DNA of 64,000 nt from Acholeplasmataceae bacterium (GTDB lineage: Bacteria > Bacillota_I > Bacilli_A > Acholeplasmatales > Acholeplasmataceae), in the NCBI GenBank assembly GCA_963675245.1, contig OY775910.1, forward strand, positions 1,024,001 through 1,088,000, given 5' to 3'. The translations under genes and the position numbers were made by a program. Below, piece after piece: positions 184-57,878 of this stretch. The stretch's first letter is position 1. Every line of letters begins with the position of its first letter. Below the pieces are notes generated by a model. It worked only from the letters and a program-made list of their open reading frames with translations. It was not told the DNA's origin and searched no databases.

Positions 184-1592
184 TGGATGAAAACAAGAAA
201 AAAATAGATGCGATAGTCGGTGATTATAAATTTGGTTTTATAACCGACTCGAAAGCAATTGTTGATACAGGTAAAGGGATAAATGAGGATGTTGTACGCG
301 CTATTAGTGCCTACAAAGGCGAACCTGAATGGATGCTCGATTACCGTTTGAAGAGTTATCAGAAGTTTTTAGAAAAGAAAAACCCAACATGGGGTCCTGA
401 TCTCTCATTTATTAATTTTGATGAATTCACTTACTTCTTAAGAGCAAGTGAAAGAGCTGAAACAAGCTGGGATGAAGTACCTGCCAATATTAGAGATACG
501 TTCGAAAAATTAGGCATTCCTGAAGCAGAACGTAATTTTTTAGCAGGTGTATCGACACAGTTTGAAAGTGAAGTCGTTTATCATAATACGATGAAAGAGT
601 TAGAAGAATTAGGCGTAATCTATGTTGATACAGATACAGCTTTAAGAGAATACCCAGAATTATTTAAAGAATATTTTGGTAAAGTGATTCCTTATAGCGA
701 TAATAAATATGCAGCTTTAAATAGTACTGTTTGGAGTGGTGGGTCATTTATTTACGTACCTAAAGGTGTAAAAGTACCTAAGCCATTACAATCATATTTT
801 AGAATTAATTCTGATCAAATGGGTCAATTTGAAAGAACATTAATCATTGTTGATGAAGGTGCATCAGTTAATTATGTTGAAGGTTGTACGGCACCTGTTT
901 ATTCCAAAGATAGTTTGCATGCAGCGATTGTTGAAATCATAGTTAAAAAAGATGCGACATGCCGTTATACAACCATTCAAAACTGGTCTAATAATGTCAT
1001 TAACTTAGTTACAAAGCGTGCATTTGTTTATGAGAATGGACACATGGAATGGATTGATGGTAACATTGGTTCAAATGTCAATATGAAATACCCTTCATGT
1101 GTATTATTAGGTGAACGTGCTAAAGGCACGACGATTTCAATCGCTTTTGCAGGAAAAGGTCAAATCCAGGATGCTGGTGCAAAAATGATTCATGTAGCAC
1201 CAAACACGACATCAACAATTATTTCTAAATCCATTTCACGTGGTGGTGGCTCTGTCAATTATCGTGGTAAAGTTGATTTTGGTAAGAAAGCTAAAGGTGC
1301 GAAGGCACATGTCGAATGTGATACGATTATCCTTGATGATTTCTCATTTAGTGATACGATTCCAACGAATGTTGTTAAGAACTCAGATGTTTTCTTAGAA
1401 CATGAAGCAACGGTTTCTAAAATCTCTGAAGAACAACTTTTCTATTTGATGAGTCGTGGTCTTTCTGAAGAAGAAGCTACCGAAATGATTGTGATGGGAT
1501 TCATTGAACCATTCGCAAAAGAACTACCTATGGAATACGCCATTGAACTTAACCAATTGATTAAATTGGAAATGGAAGGTTCAATTGGTTAA
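180..1592 (+). CDS. sufB: Fe-S cluster assembly protein SufB
   Basis: 470 aa; [41 protein letters not shown]-terminal LEMEGSIG. Confidence 0.97.
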
Positions 1593-1663
1593 TTGTCTCA
1601 TATTAATTTGTGGTAAAATGAGGGAGAGCCTTGCTTAGGCTCTCCTATCTTTATTTTGGTGAT

Positions 1664-2455
1664 ATGATGAAAAAAGGTATATTATTTGTTTTAATTATGT
1701 TAATCAGTTTTTCATTGGCAAGCTGTCAACCATTAACATATGATGAGATTAGATCATCATATGGTTCTTTTATCGCGGATAATGCAGATGATTATAATGA
1801 ATTAGTAAGTATTTACAATCATATCAGTAGTGAAATCGTTAAATCGACAGTGATGATCAAAAACACAATTAGTATACTTGATTTTTCATCGTTAGGTTCT
1901 GGTGTCATTTTTGATGAAGATGACACATATTACTACGTCATGACAAACAGCCATGTCATCGGTGCAGATGACACATATATTCATAACATTACGGTTACTT
2001 TAGTTAATGGTGATGTGATTGATGCGACACTAGTTTCATATGATATAGCTTATGATATAGCCGTTGTTAAATTTATAAAAGGTACACGAGATATAGATGT
2101 TATCATGATGGCAGATGAAAATGCTCATCAGGATGAAACAGTCATCATTTTAGGACATCCTAATGGACAATTACAAGCGATGACGATCGGTTATTACTTA
2201 GAAATGGTGACGTTAACACTTGATGATAACGCCATTGGTCAAGTAGAATTTCCAGTATTCCGTTTAAGTGCCCCAGTTCAATCAGGTAGCAGTGGCAGCG
2301 TCGTTATCAATGAAGAATTTGCCATGGTTGGTCTTGTTTTTGCTGGTAATTTTGTTGGTACCGATACATCTACACACTACTCTTATGCGATTCCCATTGA
2401 AAAAGTATACGAATTTCTTGCACTATATCCATTGACTGGTGGTGAAACATCATGA
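1664..2455 (+). CDS. Trypsin-like (S1C/HtrA-type, no PDZ) serine protease lipoprotein
   Basis: Lipobox SLASC; GSGVI, TNSHV (His), YDIAVVK (Asp), SGSSGS (Ser). ATG 1664 chosen over the ORF-track TTG 1631, which lies in a hairpin. Confidence 0.8.
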   Translation: MMKKGILFVLIMLISFSLASCQPLTYDEIRSSYGSFIADNADDYNELVSIYNHISSEIVKSTVMIKNTISILDFSSLGSGVIFDEDDTYYYVMTNSHVIGADDTYIHNITVTLVNGDVIDATLVSYDIAYDIAVVKFIKGTRDIDVIMMADENAHQDETVIILGHPNGQLQAMTIGYYLEMVTLTLDDNAIGQVEFPVFRLSAPVQSGSSGSVVINEEFAMVGLVFAGNFVGTDTSTHYSYAIPIEKVYEFLALYPLTGGETS

Positions 2456-3162
2456 GAAATATATTTACTTTATTCGTTTTATTGTTAAGTATGTTTTTGC
2501 TTGTTGGTTGTATGGAAGAATTACCACCTGAAACATTAGCGCTTCAACAGCAATATGATGATTATCGAACAAATGAATTTTCTGATTTCGATCATTTTGT
2601 AACCTATATGAATACATTTTCCCTTGAAACCTCACATGCTGGAGTTTATATAGAAGCATCCTATAGTGTTAATCCTTTGACGAGAGTGTCTCATGAATCA
2701 ATGGGTGTGATTATTCATGAAGATCAAAATTATTATTACGCTGTCACAGATTCTCATCTTTTTGATGATGGTGAACGAAATTATCGAATCACAGTTACAG
2801 ATACTTATAACCATGTCATTATTGGTCAAAGAATCGCAATTGATAAAATACTCGAAATCGCGTTGATCAAGTTTACAAAACCTGCAAAAGCGCTTTATGT
2901 ATTAGAAGCCGCACATGCGTTGCCGATTAATCAAGAACCTGTTTTATTATTATCATCATTAGGACAGATTAGACAGCATGTATCACTTGGTAACCTCATA
3001 TATGACGGTAATGTATTAGGTGTCACTGTTGATTTACCATTAGATGACGGCATTGTTGGAGGTGCAGTGTTTGATGTGAATCTTCGTTTAGTCGGTATGA
3101 TTGTGTCAGAAGATGGATTAAAAATGGCAACATATTCAGATATTTGGACATTACTTGAATAA
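2452..3162 (+). CDS. Trypsin-like fold lipoprotein, probably catalytically inactive
   Basis: Lipobox LLVGC; MGVII..YYYAVTDSH parallels the upstream paralog; EIALIK replaces DIAVVK and GIVGGAV replaces GSSGS. Confidence 0.65.
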   Translation: MRNIFTLFVLLLSMFLLVGCMEELPPETLALQQQYDDYRTNEFSDFDHFVTYMNTFSLETSHAGVYIEASYSVNPLTRVSHESMGVIIHEDQNYYYAVTDSHLFDDGERNYRITVTDTYNHVIIGQRIAIDKILEIALIKFTKPAKALYVLEAAHALPINQEPVLLLSSLGQIRQHVSLGNLIYDGNVLGVTVDLPLDDGIVGGAVFDVNLRLVGMIVSEDGLKMATYSDIWTLLE

Positions 3163-3186
3163 CGTTTGTTATAATGGGCTTAAAGG

Positions 3187-3777
3187 ATGGATGGCATGTA
3201 TCGATACTTAATCATTGAAAGTATATCCCCAATTGAACAAAACGAATCAACGCTGCTTGCGTTTTTTTCAGATATCATAAGAATTGATGATGTCACTAAA
3301 AGGCAACATCAAATCACACTCTTTTATCAAGGAGACGCTGAGGTATCGTTTAAGGATATCATCATCAATTTATCTTCAGATACATTAACTGATTTTAGAT
3401 TGTTTGAGTCATGTCATTTTAAAACCGAACTTGAACGATATAAGAATTACGAGCATATTCTTGGATTGTTAAAAAGAATTGAAATAGTAGGCCACCCATA
3501 TGTATCAGAACAGGATATTGTTTCTTTATTGATTCATGATTTAACAGATCAAGATATATCATGTTTTTTAAAATCATATGCGAAAGATCAAACCATGCTC
3601 AACAGTGTTAAAATCTATTTGGAATGCAATCAAAATACGAGTGTAGCTGCAAAACAATTGTTTGTCCACCGTAACACATTAATTCATCGTATTGATAAAT
3701 TTATAGATATAACTGGTTTTGACATTAGAGAGTTTGTTCCAGGATATTTAATATACAGCTTATTAACAAGCCATTAA
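3187..3777 (+). CDS. PucR/CdaR-type C-terminal HTH protein (YxkF-like)
   Basis: YLECNQNTSVAAKQLFVHRNTLIHRIDK is the PucR HTH motif; directly upstream of msmX, as in Bacillus yxkF-msmX. Confidence 0.85.
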   Translation: MDGMYRYLIIESISPIEQNESTLLAFFSDIIRIDDVTKRQHQITLFYQGDAEVSFKDIIINLSSDTLTDFRLFESCHFKTELERYKNYEHILGLLKRIEIVGHPYVSEQDIVSLLIHDLTDQDISCFLKSYAKDQTMLNSVKIYLECNQNTSVAAKQLFVHRNTLIHRIDKFIDITGFDIREFVPGYLIYSLLTSH

Positions 3778-50686: not shown

Positions 50687-50771
50687 TTACGATAATTAAA
50701 GTACTGATAAATCAGTGCTTTTTCTTTTTAATATAACATGTTATATTAGCAGTATATCGAGGTGCGATGCT

Positions 50772-51641
50772 ATGTCTATAAAAAGTATATTGGTTAATTA
50801 TGGTTTTAAAAAAAGTGATGATCGCCGTGATAAAGGGTTAACGACGCCTGATGATATTAAAAGAGTTGATCATCTATATTATGGTCAAAATAAGAAGTGG
50901 CAAGTCTTGGATGTCTATTATCCGAAAGATACGAATCAACCATTACCAGTCATTATTAACATCCATGGTGGTGGATGGGTTTATGGAACAAAAGAAACAT
51001 ATCAATTCTACTGTATGAGTTTAGCACAAAGACATTTTGTTGTTGTCAATATGTCGTATCGTTTAGCGCCAAAACATAAATTTCCAAAACAACTAGAGGA
51101 TATTAATTTGGTCATAGGTTGGATCCATCAACATGATAATGAATATCATATGGATTTAAATCATGTTTATTTAATCGGTGATTCAGCAGGTGCACATCTC
51201 GCAACATTATACACATCATTTTGTGTCAATAAAGCATATCAAACACAATTTAGTTTTAAACCGATTTCATCGTTTAAACCTAACGCGATCGTTTTAAATT
51301 GTGGCATTTATGATATTTATGATATAAATACAAGATTAAAAACATTATTAAAAGATTTATTGGGAAGAAAAGGATATAAAAATCATCTCAAGTTAGTACA
51401 ACCCATCGATCATATAACACATGATTTTCCACCTGTTTATGTGATGACTTCAAATGAAGATTTTTTAAGAGAGCAAGCCCCTATTTTAGTGAGTCAATTG
51501 AAAGAAAAAAAGATTGATTTTCAGTATAAAATTTATGGCGAAAAAGATAATAAGTTATCCCATGTTTTTCACTGTGATATTAGGAAACCAGAAGCGAAGA
51601 TTTGTAATGATGATGAGTGTAGATTTTTAAGAAAATATTAA
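50772..51641 (+). CDS. Alpha/beta hydrolase (HSL-type esterase/lipase)
   Basis: LDVY.P, IHGGGW, YRLAP, GDSAGAHLA, D-F, HVFH; ATG 50772 after GAGGTG. Confidence 0.9.
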   Translation: MSIKSILVNYGFKKSDDRRDKGLTTPDDIKRVDHLYYGQNKKWQVLDVYYPKDTNQPLPVIINIHGGGWVYGTKETYQFYCMSLAQRHFVVVNMSYRLAPKHKFPKQLEDINLVIGWIHQHDNEYHMDLNHVYLIGDSAGAHLATLYTSFCVNKAYQTQFSFKPISSFKPNAIVLNCGIYDIYDINTRLKTLLKDLLGRKGYKNHLKLVQPIDHITHDFPPVYVMTSNEDFLREQAPILVSQLKEKKIDFQYKIYGEKDNKLSHVFHCDIRKPEAKICNDDECRFLRKY

Positions 51642-51848
51642 CTTAGTTTAATTATTAAATTAAATTTTAGACACATGTTTACTATTCATGGTAAATGTGT
51701 GTTTTTTTATATGTCGAAAGATTTTATAAGTATTTAATATAAATAAATATGTCTGTTTTAAAAAATGACAAAACTTTTACGATTTTGAGAAAAAAATTCA
51801 GTGAAAACATTTTCATAGTTGCATTTTAAGTAAAATTCATGTAAATGA

Positions 51849-51877
51849 TTGACATTCTTTTCGAATAGTTTCATAAT
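51849..51877 (+). promoter_or_regulatory. Sigma-A promoter of the opp operon
   Basis: TTGACA(51849)-17-CATAAT; cre-like TGAAAACATTTTCA upstream at 51802-15. Confidence 0.6.
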
Positions 51878-51943: not shown

Positions 51944-52882
51944 ATGATGACTAAATTGGATAGTAAATTGATGGTTTATATTTCTAAACGATTATTGCTT
52001 ACAATCGTTACAATTTTCATAATCATTACTGTTACCTTTTTTGTCATGCATGCCATTCCTGGTGGCCCGTTTCTAAGTGAAAAAGCAGTGACGCCAGAAG
52101 TTGAAGCAGCTTTAAACGAAAAATACGGATTAGACGTTCCTGTTGGAGAGCAATTTGTTAATTATTTGAATGGTATTATTCATTTTGATTTTGGACCATC
52201 TATTAAGAGTCGTGGACGTACAGTGACCGATATTATTTTGACAGGATTTGCAACATCTGCGAAGTTAGGTGCTTTAGCGGCATCAATAGCCATTTTATTT
52301 GGTGTTTCATTTGGGTCTCTTGCTGCAATTAAAAGAAATAAAGCTTCCGATCGAGTCATTATGGTATCAACGACAGCTTTCGTTGCTATGCCATCGTTTG
52401 TTTTAGGGTCTTTTTTCTTAATTTTATTTTGTGTGATTTGGCCTATTTTTCCAGTGAATGGTGCATTACCAGGAGGAATGGTTCTGCCTACAATCACTTT
52501 GGCATTATACCCTACTGCTTATATTACACGATTAACACGTTCTAGTATGCTGGATGTTTTGCAACAAGATTACATTAGAACAGCAGAAGCTAAAGGTGTA
52601 TCTAGAGTATTAATTATTTACAAACATGCATTAAAAAATGCGTTAATCCCTGTCATCACATATGTTGGTCCAATGATTGCATATATTTTAACAGGTAGCT
52701 TAGTTGTAGAGAGAATTTTCTCAGTACCCGGTTTAGGTAGACAGTTTATCAATAGTATTACAAATAGAGATTATCCAGTAATTATGGGAACAACTATCTT
52801 TTTAGCAACACTAGTTGTCCTCATGAATTTGGTATCTGATATCATGTATAAAGCAGTTGATCCAAGGATTGACTTTAGTTAA
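51944..52882 (+). CDS. oppB: Oligopeptide ABC permease OppB
   Basis: PGGPF, YGLD.P, DFGPS, R.TRSSML.VL.QDYIRTA.AKG, HALKNAL, RDYP, DPRI. Confidence 0.93.
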   Translation: MMTKLDSKLMVYISKRLLLTIVTIFIIITVTFFVMHAIPGGPFLSEKAVTPEVEAALNEKYGLDVPVGEQFVNYLNGIIHFDFGPSIKSRGRTVTDIILTGFATSAKLGALAASIAILFGVSFGSLAAIKRNKASDRVIMVSTTAFVAMPSFVLGSFFLILFCVIWPIFPVNGALPGGMVLPTITLALYPTAYITRLTRSSMLDVLQQDYIRTAEAKGVSRVLIIYKHALKNALIPVITYVGPMIAYILTGSLVVERIFSVPGLGRQFINSITNRDYPVIMGTTIFLATLVVLMNLVSDIMYKAVDPRIDFS

Positions 52883-52891
52883 GGATAAGAG

Positions 52892-53983
52892 ATGAAAGTA
52901 AACAAATTGAGTAAAAAAACACAATTGTATACGAAACCATTTTCTTTTCATGCCAATATTGAAAGTTTTATTCCTGCTACTGAAGAGGAAAAAGGACAGC
53001 AAATATTATTTCGAGAAAGTTCAACTTTCTGGAAAGACGGACTAAAAAGACTATGGAAAAACAAAGTTGCAATGACTTGTATTTTCATCATGGCAATTAT
53101 TATCCTTGCCGTTATATTTGTACCGATGTTCTGGCCTTATAGTTATGAACAACAACTAGGTATCATAGCTGGACAACCTGTTGATGGTTCATTTGGTAAT
53201 TTAAGACCATTTGAATATGGTGAATCGGAATTATTAAGAATTGAAAACGGTGAGTTTGTATTTCCACATTTGTTTGGTACAGATTCAGCAGGTAGAGATT
53301 ACTTTATTCGTGTGATTTACGGTGCAAGGGTATCTCTTGCAGTAGGTTTGTTTGCGAGTATTATCGTTTTAATCATTGGTACATTATATGGCTCAATCGC
53401 TGGTTATATTGGTGGCAGAGTTGATTTATTTATGATGAGAATCGTTGATATCATATATTCATTACCAGAAATGTTGATTATTATTTTATTATCAGTGGTA
53501 TTGAATCAGATATTTAAAACTGTATTGACCGGTGGTGTCATCGCAGCCTTAGGGCCTAATATGATTAGTATTTTCTTAGTATTTGGGCTGTTATATTGGG
53601 TTGGCATGGCGCGCTTAATTCGTGGTCAAATATTATCATTAAAAGAACAAGATTACGTATTAGCGGCCAAATCGATTGGTGCATCACATAGTAGAATTAT
53701 TAGAAAGCATTTATTGCCAAATTCAATTAGTGTTATTATCATTTCTACAGCATTACAAATTCCAAGTGCTATTTTTACAGAAAGTTTTTTGAGTTTCTTA
53801 GGTTTAGGTGTTTCTGCACCAATGCCTTCACTTGGATCGTTAGCTAGCAATGCTTTAAGTGGTGTTTTTAGTTATACGTATAGATTAATCATTCCAGCTG
53901 TATTTATATTCCTAATTGTTTTATCACTTAATTTATTGGGTGATGGGTTAAGAGATGCTTTTGATCCGAAGTTGAAAGGATGA
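52892..53983 (+). CDS. oppC: Oligopeptide ABC permease OppC
   Basis: HLFGTD..GRD, GARVSL, ARLIRGQ, EQDYVLAA, HLLPN, ESFLSFLGLG, GDGLRDAFDP. Confidence 0.93.
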   Translation: MKVNKLSKKTQLYTKPFSFHANIESFIPATEEEKGQQILFRESSTFWKDGLKRLWKNKVAMTCIFIMAIIILAVIFVPMFWPYSYEQQLGIIAGQPVDGSFGNLRPFEYGESELLRIENGEFVFPHLFGTDSAGRDYFIRVIYGARVSLAVGLFASIIVLIIGTLYGSIAGYIGGRVDLFMMRIVDIIYSLPEMLIIILLSVVLNQIFKTVLTGGVIAALGPNMISIFLVFGLLYWVGMARLIRGQILSLKEQDYVLAAKSIGASHSRIIRKHLLPNSISVIIISTALQIPSAIFTESFLSFLGLGVSAPMPSLGSLASNALSGVFSYTYRLIIPAVFIFLIVLSLNLLGDGLRDAFDPKLKG

Positions 53984-53986
53984 TGA

Positions 53987-55018
53987 ATGATGAGTTTATT
54001 AGAAGTTCGTAACCTGCAAACATCATTTTTCACAGATGCTGGCGAAGTTAAAGCAGTCAATGGTGTTTCATTTAAAGTTGAAAAAGGAAAAGTTTTAGGT
54101 ATTGTTGGTGAATCCGGTAGTGGAAAAAGTGTCACCGCCTATTCTATTATGCAAATACTTGCAGATTCAGGACAGATTGTTGGCGGTAGTATAAAATATA
54201 AAGATACAGAGTTAGTAGGTGCCGATAGACAAACGTTGAAGGATGTTAGAGGAAATAAAATAAGCATCATTTTCCAAGACCCTATGACTAGTTTAAATCC
54301 AGTATTTACGATTGGAAATCAATTGATTGAAGCTATTTTACTTCATACCAATCGCAATAAAAAAGAAGCGATTGATCGCGCACTACAAATGATTGAGCTC
54401 GTAGGTATTAATGATCCTAAGAAACGGCTAAAACAATATCCACATGAATTATCAGGTGGTATGAGACAAAGAATTATGATTGCCATGGCGTTAGCTTGTG
54501 AACCTGATATTTTGATAGCAGATGAACCGACAACAGCCCTTGATGTGACCATACAAGCACAAATTCTTGAACTTATGATTAAGTTAAAAGAAGAACTTGG
54601 TATGGCGATTATTATGGTGACACATGATTTAGGTGTTATCGTACAAATGTGCGATGAAGTCATCGTCATGTATGCAGGAAAAGTATGTGAAAGAGGTACA
54701 GTTGATCAAATTTTTTACAATCCTAAACATGAATATACAAAGGGATTGTTGAAATCAATTCCATATGGATCTAAAGCACAAGGACAACTTATTCCAATTA
54801 CAGGATCACCTGTGGATGTGATGAATTTACCAAAAGGGTGCGCATTCTCGCCAAGGTGTTCAAAAGCGATGAAAATTTGTTTATCTGAACAATGTGGTGA
54901 AGTACCAATTGAAGGGTCTCATACTGCTGCTTGCTGGTTGAACATAAAAGAAGCAATAGAAAATGACTTACTAGTAGCAGAAAGTAATGATGCATCTCAA
55001 GAAGTTGGTGATGTTTGA
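53987..55018 (+). CDS. oppD: Oligopeptide ABC ATPase OppD
   Basis: [42 protein letters not shown]-terminal GC.F.PRC. Confidence 0.94.
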
Positions 55019-55998
55019 TGGCTGAAAAATCTGATAAAAAAGTATTGGTTGAAATCAAAGACTTAAAACAATATTTCGATATACCGACTGGATTTTTTAA
55101 ATCCAAGCAATTAAAAGCAGTTGATGGTATTTCATTTAAAATAAATGAAGGTGAAACCCTAGGTTTGGTAGGTGAATCTGGTTGTGGTAAAACAACAGCT
55201 GGCAGAACCATATTAAATTTATATAAACCAACTGATGGTGAGATTTATTTCGAAGGCAAAAAGATTGAGACAAAAGAAGATCTACAGTTTTTTAGAATGA
55301 ATGCTGCAATGGTGTTCCAAGATCCTTATGCGTCTTTAAATCCGAGAATGACCGTTGGCGATATTATTGGTGAACCCTTAGATGTTCATCACTTGTATCA
55401 CACAAAAGAAGAACGGGCAAAAAGAATTGAAGAATTAATGGAATTAGTTGGTTTATCTCATGAACATGCCACCCGTTATGCCCATGAATTCTCTGGTGGT
55501 CAAAGACAAAGAGTAGGTATCGCTAGGTCACTTGCAGTTAATCCAAAGTTTATTGTTTGTGATGAACCTGTATCAGCATTAGATGTATCTATTCAGGCAC
55601 AAGTCATCAACATGTTTGAAGATTTACAAAAGAGACTAAACCTGACATATTTGTTTATTGCACACGACTTATTAATTGTAAGACATATTAGTGATCGTAT
55701 CGCTGTGATGTATTTAGGAAAAATTGTAGAAATAGCAGACACAGAAGAATTATTCAAAAATCCCTTACATCCATATACTGAATCATTAATGTCTGCAGTA
55801 CCATCACCTGACCCTAAAACGGCACGGAAGGCTAAACGAATTGTCCTAACAGGTGATGTACCTAGTCCACTTGATATTCCGAGTGGATGTCCGTTTAGGA
55901 CGAGATGTCCAAAAGCATTTGGCCGTTGTAAAACTGAAGTGCCTACATTAAAGAAAAAACAAGATGGACATTTAGTCAGTTGTCATTTACATGATTGA
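55015..55998 (+). CDS. oppF: Oligopeptide ABC ATPase OppF
   Basis: [47 protein letters not shown]. Confidence 0.94.
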
Positions 55999-56055: not shown

Positions 56056-57828
56056 ATGAAGAAAATTAGTTTTATCGTTTTACTTTTAGTTTTTGCTGTT
56101 AGTCTCGCTGCATGTACTAGCGCAGAAGCTGTTAAGGACGTAGACTTCTCTGCCGTAGAAGCATATTCTATGGATTTATCTGGTATAGAAGGCTATGATG
56201 ATGTTGTTGAAAATGGTACTTGGGCAGAAACATATGACCAAATCATTGAATACGCAAGACTTGAAACAGATGAAGCCGTAAGAAATGAATTATATCATGC
56301 TGCTGAAGATCTATTAATGTCAACTGGTACAATTGTGCCACTTTACTATTATACTGACATTTTTATGGCTTCAACTGATATTACAGGTTTCTACTCTACA
56401 CCATCTGGTTCTAAGTATTTTAAGAATACAGCTGTTGATGGTGCGACTGATAACATTAATGTTTTATTAGCATCAGAACCTGCTACAATCGACCCAGCAT
56501 TAAACAGCTCAGTTGATGGTGCAACAATGATTCTACATGCATTTGCTGGACTAGTTCGTTATGACGATACTGGTGCAGCTTTAGAACCTGATTTAGCAGT
56601 TGCATTCCCAGAACCTGTTGAAAACAATGATGGTACAGTCACATATACATTTGAACTACGTTCTGGTCTAAAATGGTCAGATGGCTCAGCACTTACTGCT
56701 TCAGATTTCGTTTACTCATGGAATCGTGCCGTTGATCCTGAAACTGCTGCTGACTATGGTTACATGTTCTCAGTCATTGATGGATTTGCTGATAATGATT
56801 TAAACGTTGTAGCTGTTGATGATACACACCTAGCTGTTACGTTAACTGTTGACGTACCTTACTTCTTTGAATTATTAGCATTCCCAACTTATATGCCAGT
56901 TCAACAAGCTGCTGTTGAAGCTGACTCTGAAGCATGGGCTACAAGTCCTGCATCTTACGTTTCAAATGGTGCTTATGTACTAGATTCATGGGATCATGAT
57001 TCTAATTTAGTCTTTGTTAAGAATGATAATTATTGGGATGCTGCTAATGTTTCTATGGAACAAATCACATTCTATCTATCAGATGATGATACAGCAATCT
57101 TAGCAGGATTCGAATCTGGAGCGTATGACTTTATTGATTCAGTTCCAAATGATGAAATTGAACGCTTAAGTAGTACACCTGAATTCCATATTCAAGGTCA
57201 ATTAGGTACTTATTACATTATCTTTAATAACAACAAAGATTTCTTACCATCAAGCGTATCTAAAGATATGTCACCTGTTGAAGTATTAAGAGCTAATGAA
57301 GAAATTCGTAAAGCATTATCACTATTACTTGACAGAAACTACATTGTTGAGGAAATTGGACAAGCTGGTCAATTACCTGCATCATCATTCGTTTCTATGG
57401 GTATCCAAGATTCACAAGGTAACGAATTCTATCAAGCAGCTGGAAGTAGTTCATTATACGTTGGTTATTACAATACTGCAGCTAGTGCATACACAGCTAA
57501 TACAGAAGCTGCTGTTGAAACATTGAAACAGTATTTTGATTACAATGAAGGTCAAGAAAAATTCACAAACTTCCCATCATTCGAATATTTATATAACACA
57601 TCATCTGGTCACCAAGCAATCGGTGAATATATCCAATCAGCATTTGCTGCATTTGGAATTGATGTTACGTTAGCAAATCAAGAATGGGGCACATTCTTAG
57701 ACACAAGAAAGAATGGCGACTATGTACTTGCTCGTAATGGTTGGTTAGCAGACTTTAATGATCCAATCAACATGCTTGATATGTGGACAACTGATTCTGG
57801 TAATAACGACGCTCAATTAGGTAAATAA
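56056..57828 (+). CDS. oppA: Oligopeptide-binding lipoprotein OppA (apparently circularly permuted)
   Basis: Lipobox SLAAC; EPATIDP, YTFELR..LKWSDG..LTA.DF.YSW, SNGAY, KN.NYWDA, GW.ADFNDP; the usual C-terminal segment is found at the N-terminus. Confidence 0.9.
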   Translation: MKKISFIVLLLVFAVSLAACTSAEAVKDVDFSAVEAYSMDLSGIEGYDDVVENGTWAETYDQIIEYARLETDEAVRNELYHAAEDLLMSTGTIVPLYYYTDIFMASTDITGFYSTPSGSKYFKNTAVDGATDNINVLLASEPATIDPALNSSVDGATMILHAFAGLVRYDDTGAALEPDLAVAFPEPVENNDGTVTYTFELRSGLKWSDGSALTASDFVYSWNRAVDPETAADYGYMFSVIDGFADNDLNVVAVDDTHLAVTLTVDVPYFFELLAFPTYMPVQQAAVEADSEAWATSPASYVSNGAYVLDSWDHDSNLVFVKNDNYWDAANVSMEQITFYLSDDDTAILAGFESGAYDFIDSVPNDEIERLSSTPEFHIQGQLGTYYIIFNNNKDFLPSSVSKDMSPVEVLRANEEIRKALSLLLDRNYIVEEIGQAGQLPASSFVSMGIQDSQGNEFYQAAGSSSLYVGYYNTAASAYTANTEAAVETLKQYFDYNEGQEKFTNFPSFEYLYNTSSGHQAIGEYIQSAFAAFGIDVTLANQEWGTFLDTRKNGDYVLARNGWLADFNDPINMLDMWTTDSGNNDAQLGK

Positions 57829-57846: not shown

Positions 57847-57878
57847 AAAAGAACTTACTTTGTGTAAGTTCTTTTTTT
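57847..57878 (+). terminator. Intrinsic terminator after oppA
   Basis: AAAAGAACTTAC-TTTGT-GTAAGTTCTTTT followed by TTT. Confidence 0.75.

Follow-up and report, generated by a model that had tools for sequence, protein, structure and literature searches.

A conserved natural circular permutant of the OppA fold, encoded beside oppBCDF in an Acholeplasmataceae genome

The two-lobed fold of the binding proteins that serve ATP-binding cassette (ABC) importers tolerates new chain termini, as illustrated by engineered circular permutants and domain insertions made in periplasmic binding proteins (mostly maltose and other sugar binders) for the construction of biosensors. The subject of this report is a natural case in a peptide-binding family: an oppA-type gene at positions 56056..57828 of a 64,000-nucleotide stretch of contig OY775910.1 (assembly GCA_963675245.1, Acholeplasmataceae bacterium), here termed ‘the window’, in whose forward-strand coordinates all positions are given. 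The gene is the last of an oppB-C-D-F-A operon, and its product (‘window OppA’) is a real, conserved natural circular permutant of the OppA fold (family 5, cluster C), in which the tail of the canonical chain has become its beginning.

The closest described precedent is MglB-2 (Tp0684) of Treponema pallidum, a natural and conserved circular permutant of an ABC-importer binding lipoprotein that has kept its ligand binding, and for which a class ‘Type Ic / Cluster Bc’ was proposed; according to that account (PMC4990184), permutants of this type occur in spirochaetes and in Gram-positive gut bacteria, where they are tethered, and tethering was asked about as a driver. MglB-2 differs from window OppA in being a sugar-binding Cluster B protein, in being cut at another point, and in having a solved structure with binding data (PMC4990184). 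Window OppA falls outside the MglB-type Cluster B, SBP_bac_5 being its sole significant Pfam family, and the series of cut sites, tandem intermediates and reversion seen among its relatives has no parallel in the available part of the MglB-2 account. A description of a permuted OppA/DppA-type protein was not found in the full-text literature searched, the coverage of which mostly excludes subscription journals; one paper that holds both ‘circular permut’ and ‘OppA’ (PMC2238938) is an unrelated work on structural analogues.

Canonical binding proteins can be described as three modules, namely the N-terminal lobe (‘N’), the second lobe (‘C’) and the C-terminal tail (‘T’), which follow one another in the order N-C-T. 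The solved OppA, DppE and MppA proteins (8are/8arn, 1ola/1b05, E. coli 3tcf and 8ay0) share with window OppA their family, fold, aligned His, Arg, Trp and Asp residues and operon partners, but the window chain begins with what are their last ~99 residues, and its termini and anchor would lie in the second lobe rather than, as theirs do, in the first. Closer canonical relatives from Clostridia (among them P0063, P0076, P0080, and P0120, named Butyrivibrio sp.; P numbers denote proteins and L numbers denote loci) are 55-60% identical to window OppA over every module, and share with it both the oppBCDF-A operon and a lineage-specific hairpin that precedes the tail helices; they differ in their N-C-T order and, often, in long leaders rich in Ser, Thr, Ala and Glu.

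The open reading frame (ORF) at 56056..57828 encodes 590 amino acids plus a stop codon, and is free of internal stops. Its parts are as follows, with confidence given as the predicted local distance difference test (pLDDT) of the structural model described below.

56056..56115, + strand: signal peptide, residues 1-20, with lipobox LAAC at residues 17-20 and Cys20 as the predicted lipid anchor (from the sequence pattern; model helix 2-18 at low pLDDT)
56116..56142, + strand: short new leader, residues 21-29, with no canonical counterpart (BLASTP alignments to canonical P0063 and P0120 start at residue 30)
56143..56439, + strand: module T, residues 30-128, equivalent to canonical residues 501-598 and profile positions 495-591; a hairpin, two helices and a long crossing strand (pLDDT 83-97)
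56434..56454, + strand: fusion joint VDGATDN, residues 127-133, the few residues that part the conserved tail of canonical chains from their conserved first strand
56440..57249, + strand: module N, residues 129-398, the canonical N-terminal lobe, profile ~28-302 (from BLASTP, profile and structure alignment)
57250..57825, + strand: module C, residues 399-590, the canonical second lobe as far as ...GNNDAQLGK, profile ~303-492; carries H519, R560, W563 and D566

The Pfam model PF00496 (SBP_bac_5) matched residues 176-584 with 248.2 bits (cut-off 32.4), over positions 2-367 of its 368, and no other Pfam family was significant. Searches of solved chains with phmmer (against the PDB) returned the protein as two pieces in exchanged order: for B. 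subtilis OppA (8are), residues 132-585 aligned with chain residues 20-449 and residues 59-125 with 456-522 (E 5e-4 for the latter piece), while for DppE (8ay0), residues 139-583 aligned with 29-443 and residues 55-118 with 447-511 (3.5e-7); for Salmonella OppA (1b05), the tail piece (residues 59-124 with 445-511) was weak when taken by itself (0.14). Against canonical P0063 (599 amino acids), BLASTP paired residues 136-590 with 36-499 (59% identity, E 0) and residues 30-128 with 501-598 (55%, E 1.5e-29), so that both pieces together cover the whole canonical chain, with the order rotated and nothing lost. On a profile of 592 positions built from 51 canonical relatives, window OppA likewise reads as positions 495-591 (at residues 31-128) followed by 28-492 (at residues 127-590). 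An initial annotation of the window, made from its letters alone, had proposed exactly such a permutation and predicted a pair of high-scoring segments in swapped order, which 8are, 8ay0 and P0063 all provide. The stretches that it quoted are present (the tail-like YDQIIEYARLETDEAVRNELYHAAEDLLMSTGTIVPLYYYTDIFM...KYF at residues 60-122, INVLLASEPATIDP at 134-147, and a C-terminus ...GWLADFNDPINMLDMWTTDSGNNDAQLGK), and its account of a segment moved to the front is borne out, although the segment amounts to ~99 residues by this mapping and not the ~90 that it had estimated.

Around the joint, the conserved letters of relatives (...KYFMYTT[IV].. in the tail and ..I[NS]VCLASEP in the first strand, as judged from canonical termini) are separated by ~7 residues, and those ~7 residues are modelled at pLDDT >90, which would imply that the parent termini lie near one another in space. 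The new C- and N-termini correspond to about residues 440-445 of Salmonella OppA (by hand count on the phmmer alignment), and the cut sits at the start of a ~25-residue hairpin (model strands 37-40 and 50-54) that is present in the subfamily and absent from B. subtilis OppA. Domain III of Salmonella OppA reportedly spans about residues 271-486 (1994 structure paper). Because the cut maps to ~440-445, and given those limits, both new ends would lie in the second lobe and the canonical ends in the first; it follows from the mapping, taken with the same limits, that the lipid tether has probably been moved to the other lobe, as the initial annotation had supposed.

An AlphaFold2 run supplied with an alignment of 62 proteins of the window's T-N-C order gave a model with a mean pLDDT of 92.1 and a predicted template modelling score of 0.88, in which the moved segment (pLDDT 83-97) is as confident as the rest. 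The best Foldseek match of this model is B. subtilis OppA (E 2e-35), and its alignment to 1ola with VIA-align gave Z 30.1 and a root-mean-square deviation (rmsd) of 2.1 Å over 423 residues, pairing model residues 124-590 with chain residues 1-444; alignments to closed, liganded OppA, MppA and DppE were comparable (Z ~30, rmsd 2.1-2.5 Å, ~420 residues). In all 50 of the 50 solved chains listed, only model residues ~124-590 were matched, to chain residues ~1-444/455, which is what a sequential aligner must give on a rotated chain. Retention of the three-domain OppA-type fold is thus shown at the level of a predicted model.

The rotated order is not private to this genome. Relatives were gathered from the 120 best clusters of a large protein collection and from a second search, for a total of 235 proteins. 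Among those 120 best clusters, 61 besides the window's own are collinear with window OppA over 95-100% of the protein at 54-85% identity; the collinearity of homologs with a canonical OppA, which would have spoken against a permutation, was not observed. Within the 235 proteins, 62 have the T-N-C order, 51 are canonical (N-C-T), 120 are of a third order, C-T-N, and one each reads N-C-T-N and C-T-T-N. The window's order also appears in 30 of 80 genome loci, the nearest (81% identical) being in an Acholeplasmataceae metagenome-assembled genome (MAG); the titles of these loci name Acholeplasmataceae, Bacilli, Erysipelotrichaceae, Lachnospiraceae, Oscillospiraceae, Blautia, Ruminococcus and Sphaerochaetaceae. 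The last of these names belongs to L052, a window-order protein in a MAG from outside Bacillota, which could represent either a transfer or a binning error. In five further T-N-C proteins (P0239-P0243), the leader after the lipobox is rich in Glu, Ala and Lys, extends for ~500-700 residues with apolipoprotein-like Pfam matches, and amounts to an extremely long tether.

Cys20 and many core residues are invariant in 62/62 T-N-C proteins, as are H519, R560, W563 and D566, which align (by hand count on the phmmer alignment) with H371, R413, W416 and D419 of Salmonella OppA, presumably the residues that hold the ends of the bound peptide. The ratio of nonsynonymous to synonymous substitution rates (dN/dS) between window OppA and its 81% identical L003 orthologue is approximately 0.137 overall and, module by module, 0.147 (T together with the leader), 0.123 (N) and 0.150 (C), a pattern that indicates purifying selection acting equally upon the moved part.

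The genomic context is that of an ordinary oligopeptide importer, and comprises the following features.

51849..51877, + strand: promoter-like site TTGACA-17-CATAAT (11/12), ahead of oppB and just 3' of a terminator-like hairpin at 51669-51704; a consensus match only
51944..52882, + strand: oppB-type permease, 312 amino acids (Pfam BPD_transp_1 7.5e-41, and BPD_transp_1_N)
52892..53983, + strand: oppC-type permease, 363 amino acids (Pfam BPD_transp_1 1.7e-32, and OppC_N 1.4e-13)
53987..55018, + strand: oppD-type ATPase, 343 amino acids (Pfam ABC_tran and oligo_HPY)
55015..55998, + strand: oppF-type ATPase, 327 amino acids (Pfam ABC_tran and oligo_HPY)
56056..57828, + strand: circularly permuted oppA, chain order T-N-C, 590 amino acids plus stop; last gene of the operon
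57847..57875, no strand assigned: hairpin of 12 pairs with T runs, common to the convergent oppA and H+-pyrophosphatase genes; listed on the - strand, with a T run also read on the + strand

The five opp genes are thereby bracketed by the promoter-like site at 51849-51877 (sites of this kind being no more numerous in the region than in shuffled sequence) and the hairpin at 57847-57875, beyond which the H+-pyrophosphatase gene converges upon oppA from its 3' side. The oppA gene is the sole binding-protein gene of its operon. The initial annotation had credited it with an intact frame and with its own ribosome-binding site, lipobox and terminator; the frame, the LAAC lipobox and a hairpin with a T run are all in place, and the stretch 5' of the ATG is purine-rich (AAAGAGAGAGAGAAAAA) but contains no clear GGAGG. 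Across the 80 loci, oppB-C-D-F lies upstream of the binding-protein gene in 61, whatever the chain order, and downstream in two, the other 17 being cut short or incomplete (hand count); within 8 kb, 79 of the 80 loci hold one gene of the subfamily, and L079 has a weak second match. The two loci in which the permuted gene precedes oppBCDF, L055 and L062 (from Bacilli and Erysipelotrichaceae MAGs), group with canonical L066 and apart from the window's clade. A second Opp-like system is found in the same genome, ~12-15 kb before the window (L002, ORF 436-3399, and L084); the L002 binding protein is 987 amino acids long, with N-terminal immunoglobulin-like and chitinase-60-like repeats (E 3e-17) and a weak family-5 match.

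Taken together, these observations are best explained, with a probability of roughly 0.9, by a working peptide receptor of the adjacent OppBCDF importer whose OppA fold is naturally circularly permuted, and which most likely arose through tandem fusion and trimming. The chain would start at the lipid-anchored Cys20 and run first through the canonical tail, forming the second-lobe hairpin and the two helices and, after these, a strand crossing over to the first lobe; it would next pass through the ~7-residue joint into the normal N-terminus, and end in the second lobe directly after the GW.AD.NDP...GNND segment. Fold, binding cleft and operon slot would be unchanged, and chain ends and anchor point would differ. 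As for function, window OppA is most likely an ordinary peptide receptor, with no new function suggested: lipid-anchored and two-lobed, it would be expected to close on a peptide and to dock on OppBC like any OppA. In the E. coli DppABCDF structure, the permease is contacted by both lobes, and DppB inserts a loop into the cleft (PMC12136057).

Beyond the window's own clade, permutation of this fold appears to have occurred repeatedly, and at a limited number of points. In a profile-typed set of 324 sequences (244 proteins and 80 locus ORFs), chain ends fall at profile position ~492 (the window type) in 96, at ~302 in 134 and at ~398 in 22, with 66 canonical and six untyped sequences. A second set, consisting of the 150 best representatives of 50%-identity clusters, contained 68 canonical proteins, 42 of the window type plus three fragments, 14 cut near 300, six cut near 363-400, two near 150 and one near 192, together with nine other fragments and five complex cases. 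Five or more cut sites are thus represented in the wider subfamily. In the three common permuted types the chain begins anew at profile 495, 304 and 401; by the lobe limits given above, each of these cuts would place the N-terminus, and with it the anchor, in the second lobe. Two of the cuts, that of the window and that at 302, coincide with insertions of the subfamily relative to B. subtilis OppA, visible as alignment gaps. The permuted orders other than that of the window are distributed as follows.

C-T-N order (start ~304, end ~302): L023, L027-L029, L031, L032, L035-L040; P0092, P0121-P0235
Third permuted order (start ~401, end ~398): L005-L022, L024-L026, L030, L033; P0245, P0273, P0303
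Rarer cuts (~150, ~192, ~363-378), among the 50%-identity representatives: P0308, P0323, P0350, P0307

The C-T-N order is very common in MAGs of Oscillospiraceae, Faecousia and Ruminococcaceae, and its members form a clade of their own (with a Shimodaira-Hasegawa-like approximate likelihood ratio test, SH-aLRT, of 98) inside the canonical proteins in a tree of 100 rows. The third permuted order, in which the chain begins at ...TYLYNTS... and continues with the tail and then the first lobe, occurs in Acutalibacteraceae, Eubacteriales and one Erysipelotrichaceae MAG. Two very long proteins, P0251 (3278 residues) and P0254 (3366 residues), end in a complete binding module of the C-T-N type.

When chain order was followed on a tree of 154 sequences, 32 changes were counted, 13 of them involving the window's order, of which at least nine are forced by branches with SH-aLRT >=95; these counts are soft, coming from a quick search with long branches and uneven composition flagged for 19 rows, and leave the direction of each change (gain or reversion) undecided. 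Direct comparisons agree with repeated change: P0261, of the window order, is 65.5% identical to canonical P0274 but shares 41% identity with window OppA, and comparable permuted/canonical pairs exist for the other two cuts (P0340/P0328 and P0337/P0356). The canonical order would be the deep ancestral state, because the solved and more distant OppA proteins (50 listed chains) are all canonical. A single origin of all T-N-C proteins was considered and ruled out, since some of them (L055/L062, 30 members of a distant group, and several of the representatives) fall with canonical proteins instead.

The family also contains proteins that resemble steps in the making of a permutant, as the initial annotation had anticipated in looking to relatives with a tandem double OppA. 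Complete tandem fusions are represented by P0296 (N-C-T-N-C-T, with units 48% identical), P0344 (59%) and P0260 (T-N-C-T-N-C, 31%), and partial duplications by P0010 (N-C-T-N, copies 73% identical) and P0061 (C-T-T-N, copies 93% identical); P0271, with 2704 amino acids, holds several partial binding-protein units. The first N copy of P0010 is nearest to canonical P0093/P0112 (81%), and its remainder falls inside the C-T-N clade, so that this protein is as readily explained by a fusion or recombination of later date, or by chimerism of its 3.5-kb contig, as by an ancestral intermediate. No tandem double was found among nine longer proteins that match window OppA, which is weak evidence; the tandem forms came solely from the representative library. 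The similar joints of the window type and of C-T-N proteins had suggested a common fusion ancestor, which was rejected: the letters in question are those of the canonical tail and first strand, both conserved, and in the trees these two types stand apart.

Given these forms, the permutation most likely began when two tandem copies became fused in frame and their outer parts were then lost; an in-frame internal deletion would have preserved the signal peptide. Gene duplication and trimming, which had been offered for this gene from the outset, is well supported as the family's route by the tandem and partly duplicated relatives; such forms are lacking in the window's own clade, for whose lineage the same route is inferred. 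Related OppA proteins would have taken it many times, with the cut made at one of a few tolerated points, and in one case or more the direction would have been reversed.

The history of the window's clade was reconstructed from that tree of 100 rows, in which the modules were set side by side (IQ-TREE quick search, LG+G4) for 35 T-N-C, 35 canonical and 30 C-T-N proteins sampled from 62, 51 and 120, with P0010 and P0061 left out. All 35 of the 35 sampled T-N-C proteins, together with P0069 of canonical order, form one clade with an SH-aLRT of 96 (and again 96 in the tree of 154 rows), sister to canonical P0076 and P0080. In larger trees, P0069 is joined by another canonical-order protein, P0104, and both are nested in the T-N-C clade (99-100). 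The join of C to T measures 51 residues in P0069 and 48 in P0104, compared to 36-38 in the 43 other canonical proteins measured, and the extra 12-15 residues resemble what window-type proteins (P0065 and P0036, for example) carry as C-terminal extension and post-lipobox leader. Our reading is that the ancestor of this clade probably underwent a single permutation, and that in P0069 and P0104 the process may have been repeated, restoring the canonical order once and leaving the scar.

Several points weigh against the interpretation of the gene as a working, permuted receptor of this origin. The second Opp-like system in the genome means that the role of the window's operon need not be essential. 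The dN/dS values are approximate, dS being ~1 in the comparison with L003, and where the moved segment lies in space is known from a predicted model. The tandem fusions are either 31-34% identical to the window protein or belong to another permuted lineage, and provide no intermediate for the window's own event. The trees are quick searches with SH-aLRT support only, and five T-N-C proteins (P0049, P0059, P0060, P0065 and P0097) shift their place in trees built from single modules.

Two alternatives deny the premise that the gene encodes a functioning permuted receptor at all. A chimeric join near 56440, whether from assembly or annotation, can be given practically no credence, because 61 other clusters and ~30 loci from independent assemblies show this order and joint, because the joint region is conserved and under purifying selection, and because the source genome is one 1.63-Mb contig rated 99.96% complete; moreover, all 208 of the 208 words sampled from the stretch were found in three runs of one sample, possibly the source (and a fraction of 0.38 in one run of a second sample; four runs, one study, with no RNA run among those listed). 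It might instead be imagined that the protein has left transport for another role, as a sensor, an adhesin or a chaperone-like factor, while keeping its place in the operon, and second roles of this sort have been reported for some OppA proteins, including cytoadhesion in Mycoplasma hominis and chaperone-like activity in Yersinia. That view is very improbable here, since the gene is the sole binding-protein gene of its operon, its peptide-binding residues are invariant, and the layout of the operon is the same as in canonical relatives.

A different matter is why such a rearrangement should persist in a receptor that otherwise appears ordinary. The account that we lean towards, if only slightly, is that the permutation is selectively neutral: fusion and trimming would be frequent, the survivors would be those cut at tolerated surface loops, and the anchor point would be without consequence. 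In agreement with this, cut sites cluster at three main profile positions (~492, 302 and 398) plus two rarer ones (~150 and 192), the window's cut and the 302 cut coincide with subfamily insertions, canonical and permuted forms occupy the same operon slot, a reversion exists, and the strength of selection is the same in all modules; that the three common cuts all anchor the second lobe sits less comfortably with neutrality, and could reflect selection. An adaptive explanation, by which an anchor on the second lobe via a short leader improves presentation to the permease or takes up tethering strain, is more doubtful. It would account for the placement of all three common N-termini (495, 304 and 401) in the second lobe (by the domain limits given above) and for the recurrence of T-N-C in many lineages through at least nine forced changes, and the authors of the Treponema MglB-2 structure raised the same idea for a tethered permutant (PMC4990184). 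Leaders, measured from the Cys to the first conserved element, are indeed shorter where the order is T-N-C (median 12, n 56) than where it is canonical (median 39, n 49), in a comparison that ignores relatedness and in which a single Butyrivibrio-like group, whose linkers are long, supplies many of the canonical proteins. However, P0239-P0243 have the T-N-C order and sit behind linkers of ~500-700 residues, which argues against the need for a short tether, and reversion also occurs.

The broadest formulation of these results, which is offered tentatively, is that OppA-type lipoproteins of Bacillota and their neighbours may constitute a hot spot of recurrent circular permutation, with dozens of independent events, three to five reused cut points, living tandem intermediates and at least one reversion, where the anchor would have moved to the second lobe because that position is favoured in tethered receptors, and where the window protein would be one outcome of a selected and repeatable rewiring. 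If that were true, the family would amount to a natural experiment on chain order and tether point in a Venus-flytrap receptor. Quite apart from that possibility, the binding proteins of ABC importers are classed by chain topology, and a conserved, selected OppA with a rotated chain implies that the canonical order is not required. The matched canonical/permuted pairs (up to 65% identical), several cuts, fusion intermediates and reversion together provide unusually complete material on the origin of permutation and the choice of tether point, and the naturally tolerated cut points could be used in engineered permuted or split peptide sensors. There is also a practical lesson for annotation, in that domain models built on the canonical order misjudge permutants: Pfam covers only residues 176-584 of window OppA, and relatives are labelled ‘hypothetical’.

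Upstream of the operon, an esterase-type gene (BD-FAE / Abhydrolase_3) occupies 50715-51641, and is closed by the strong terminator-like hairpin at 51669-51704.

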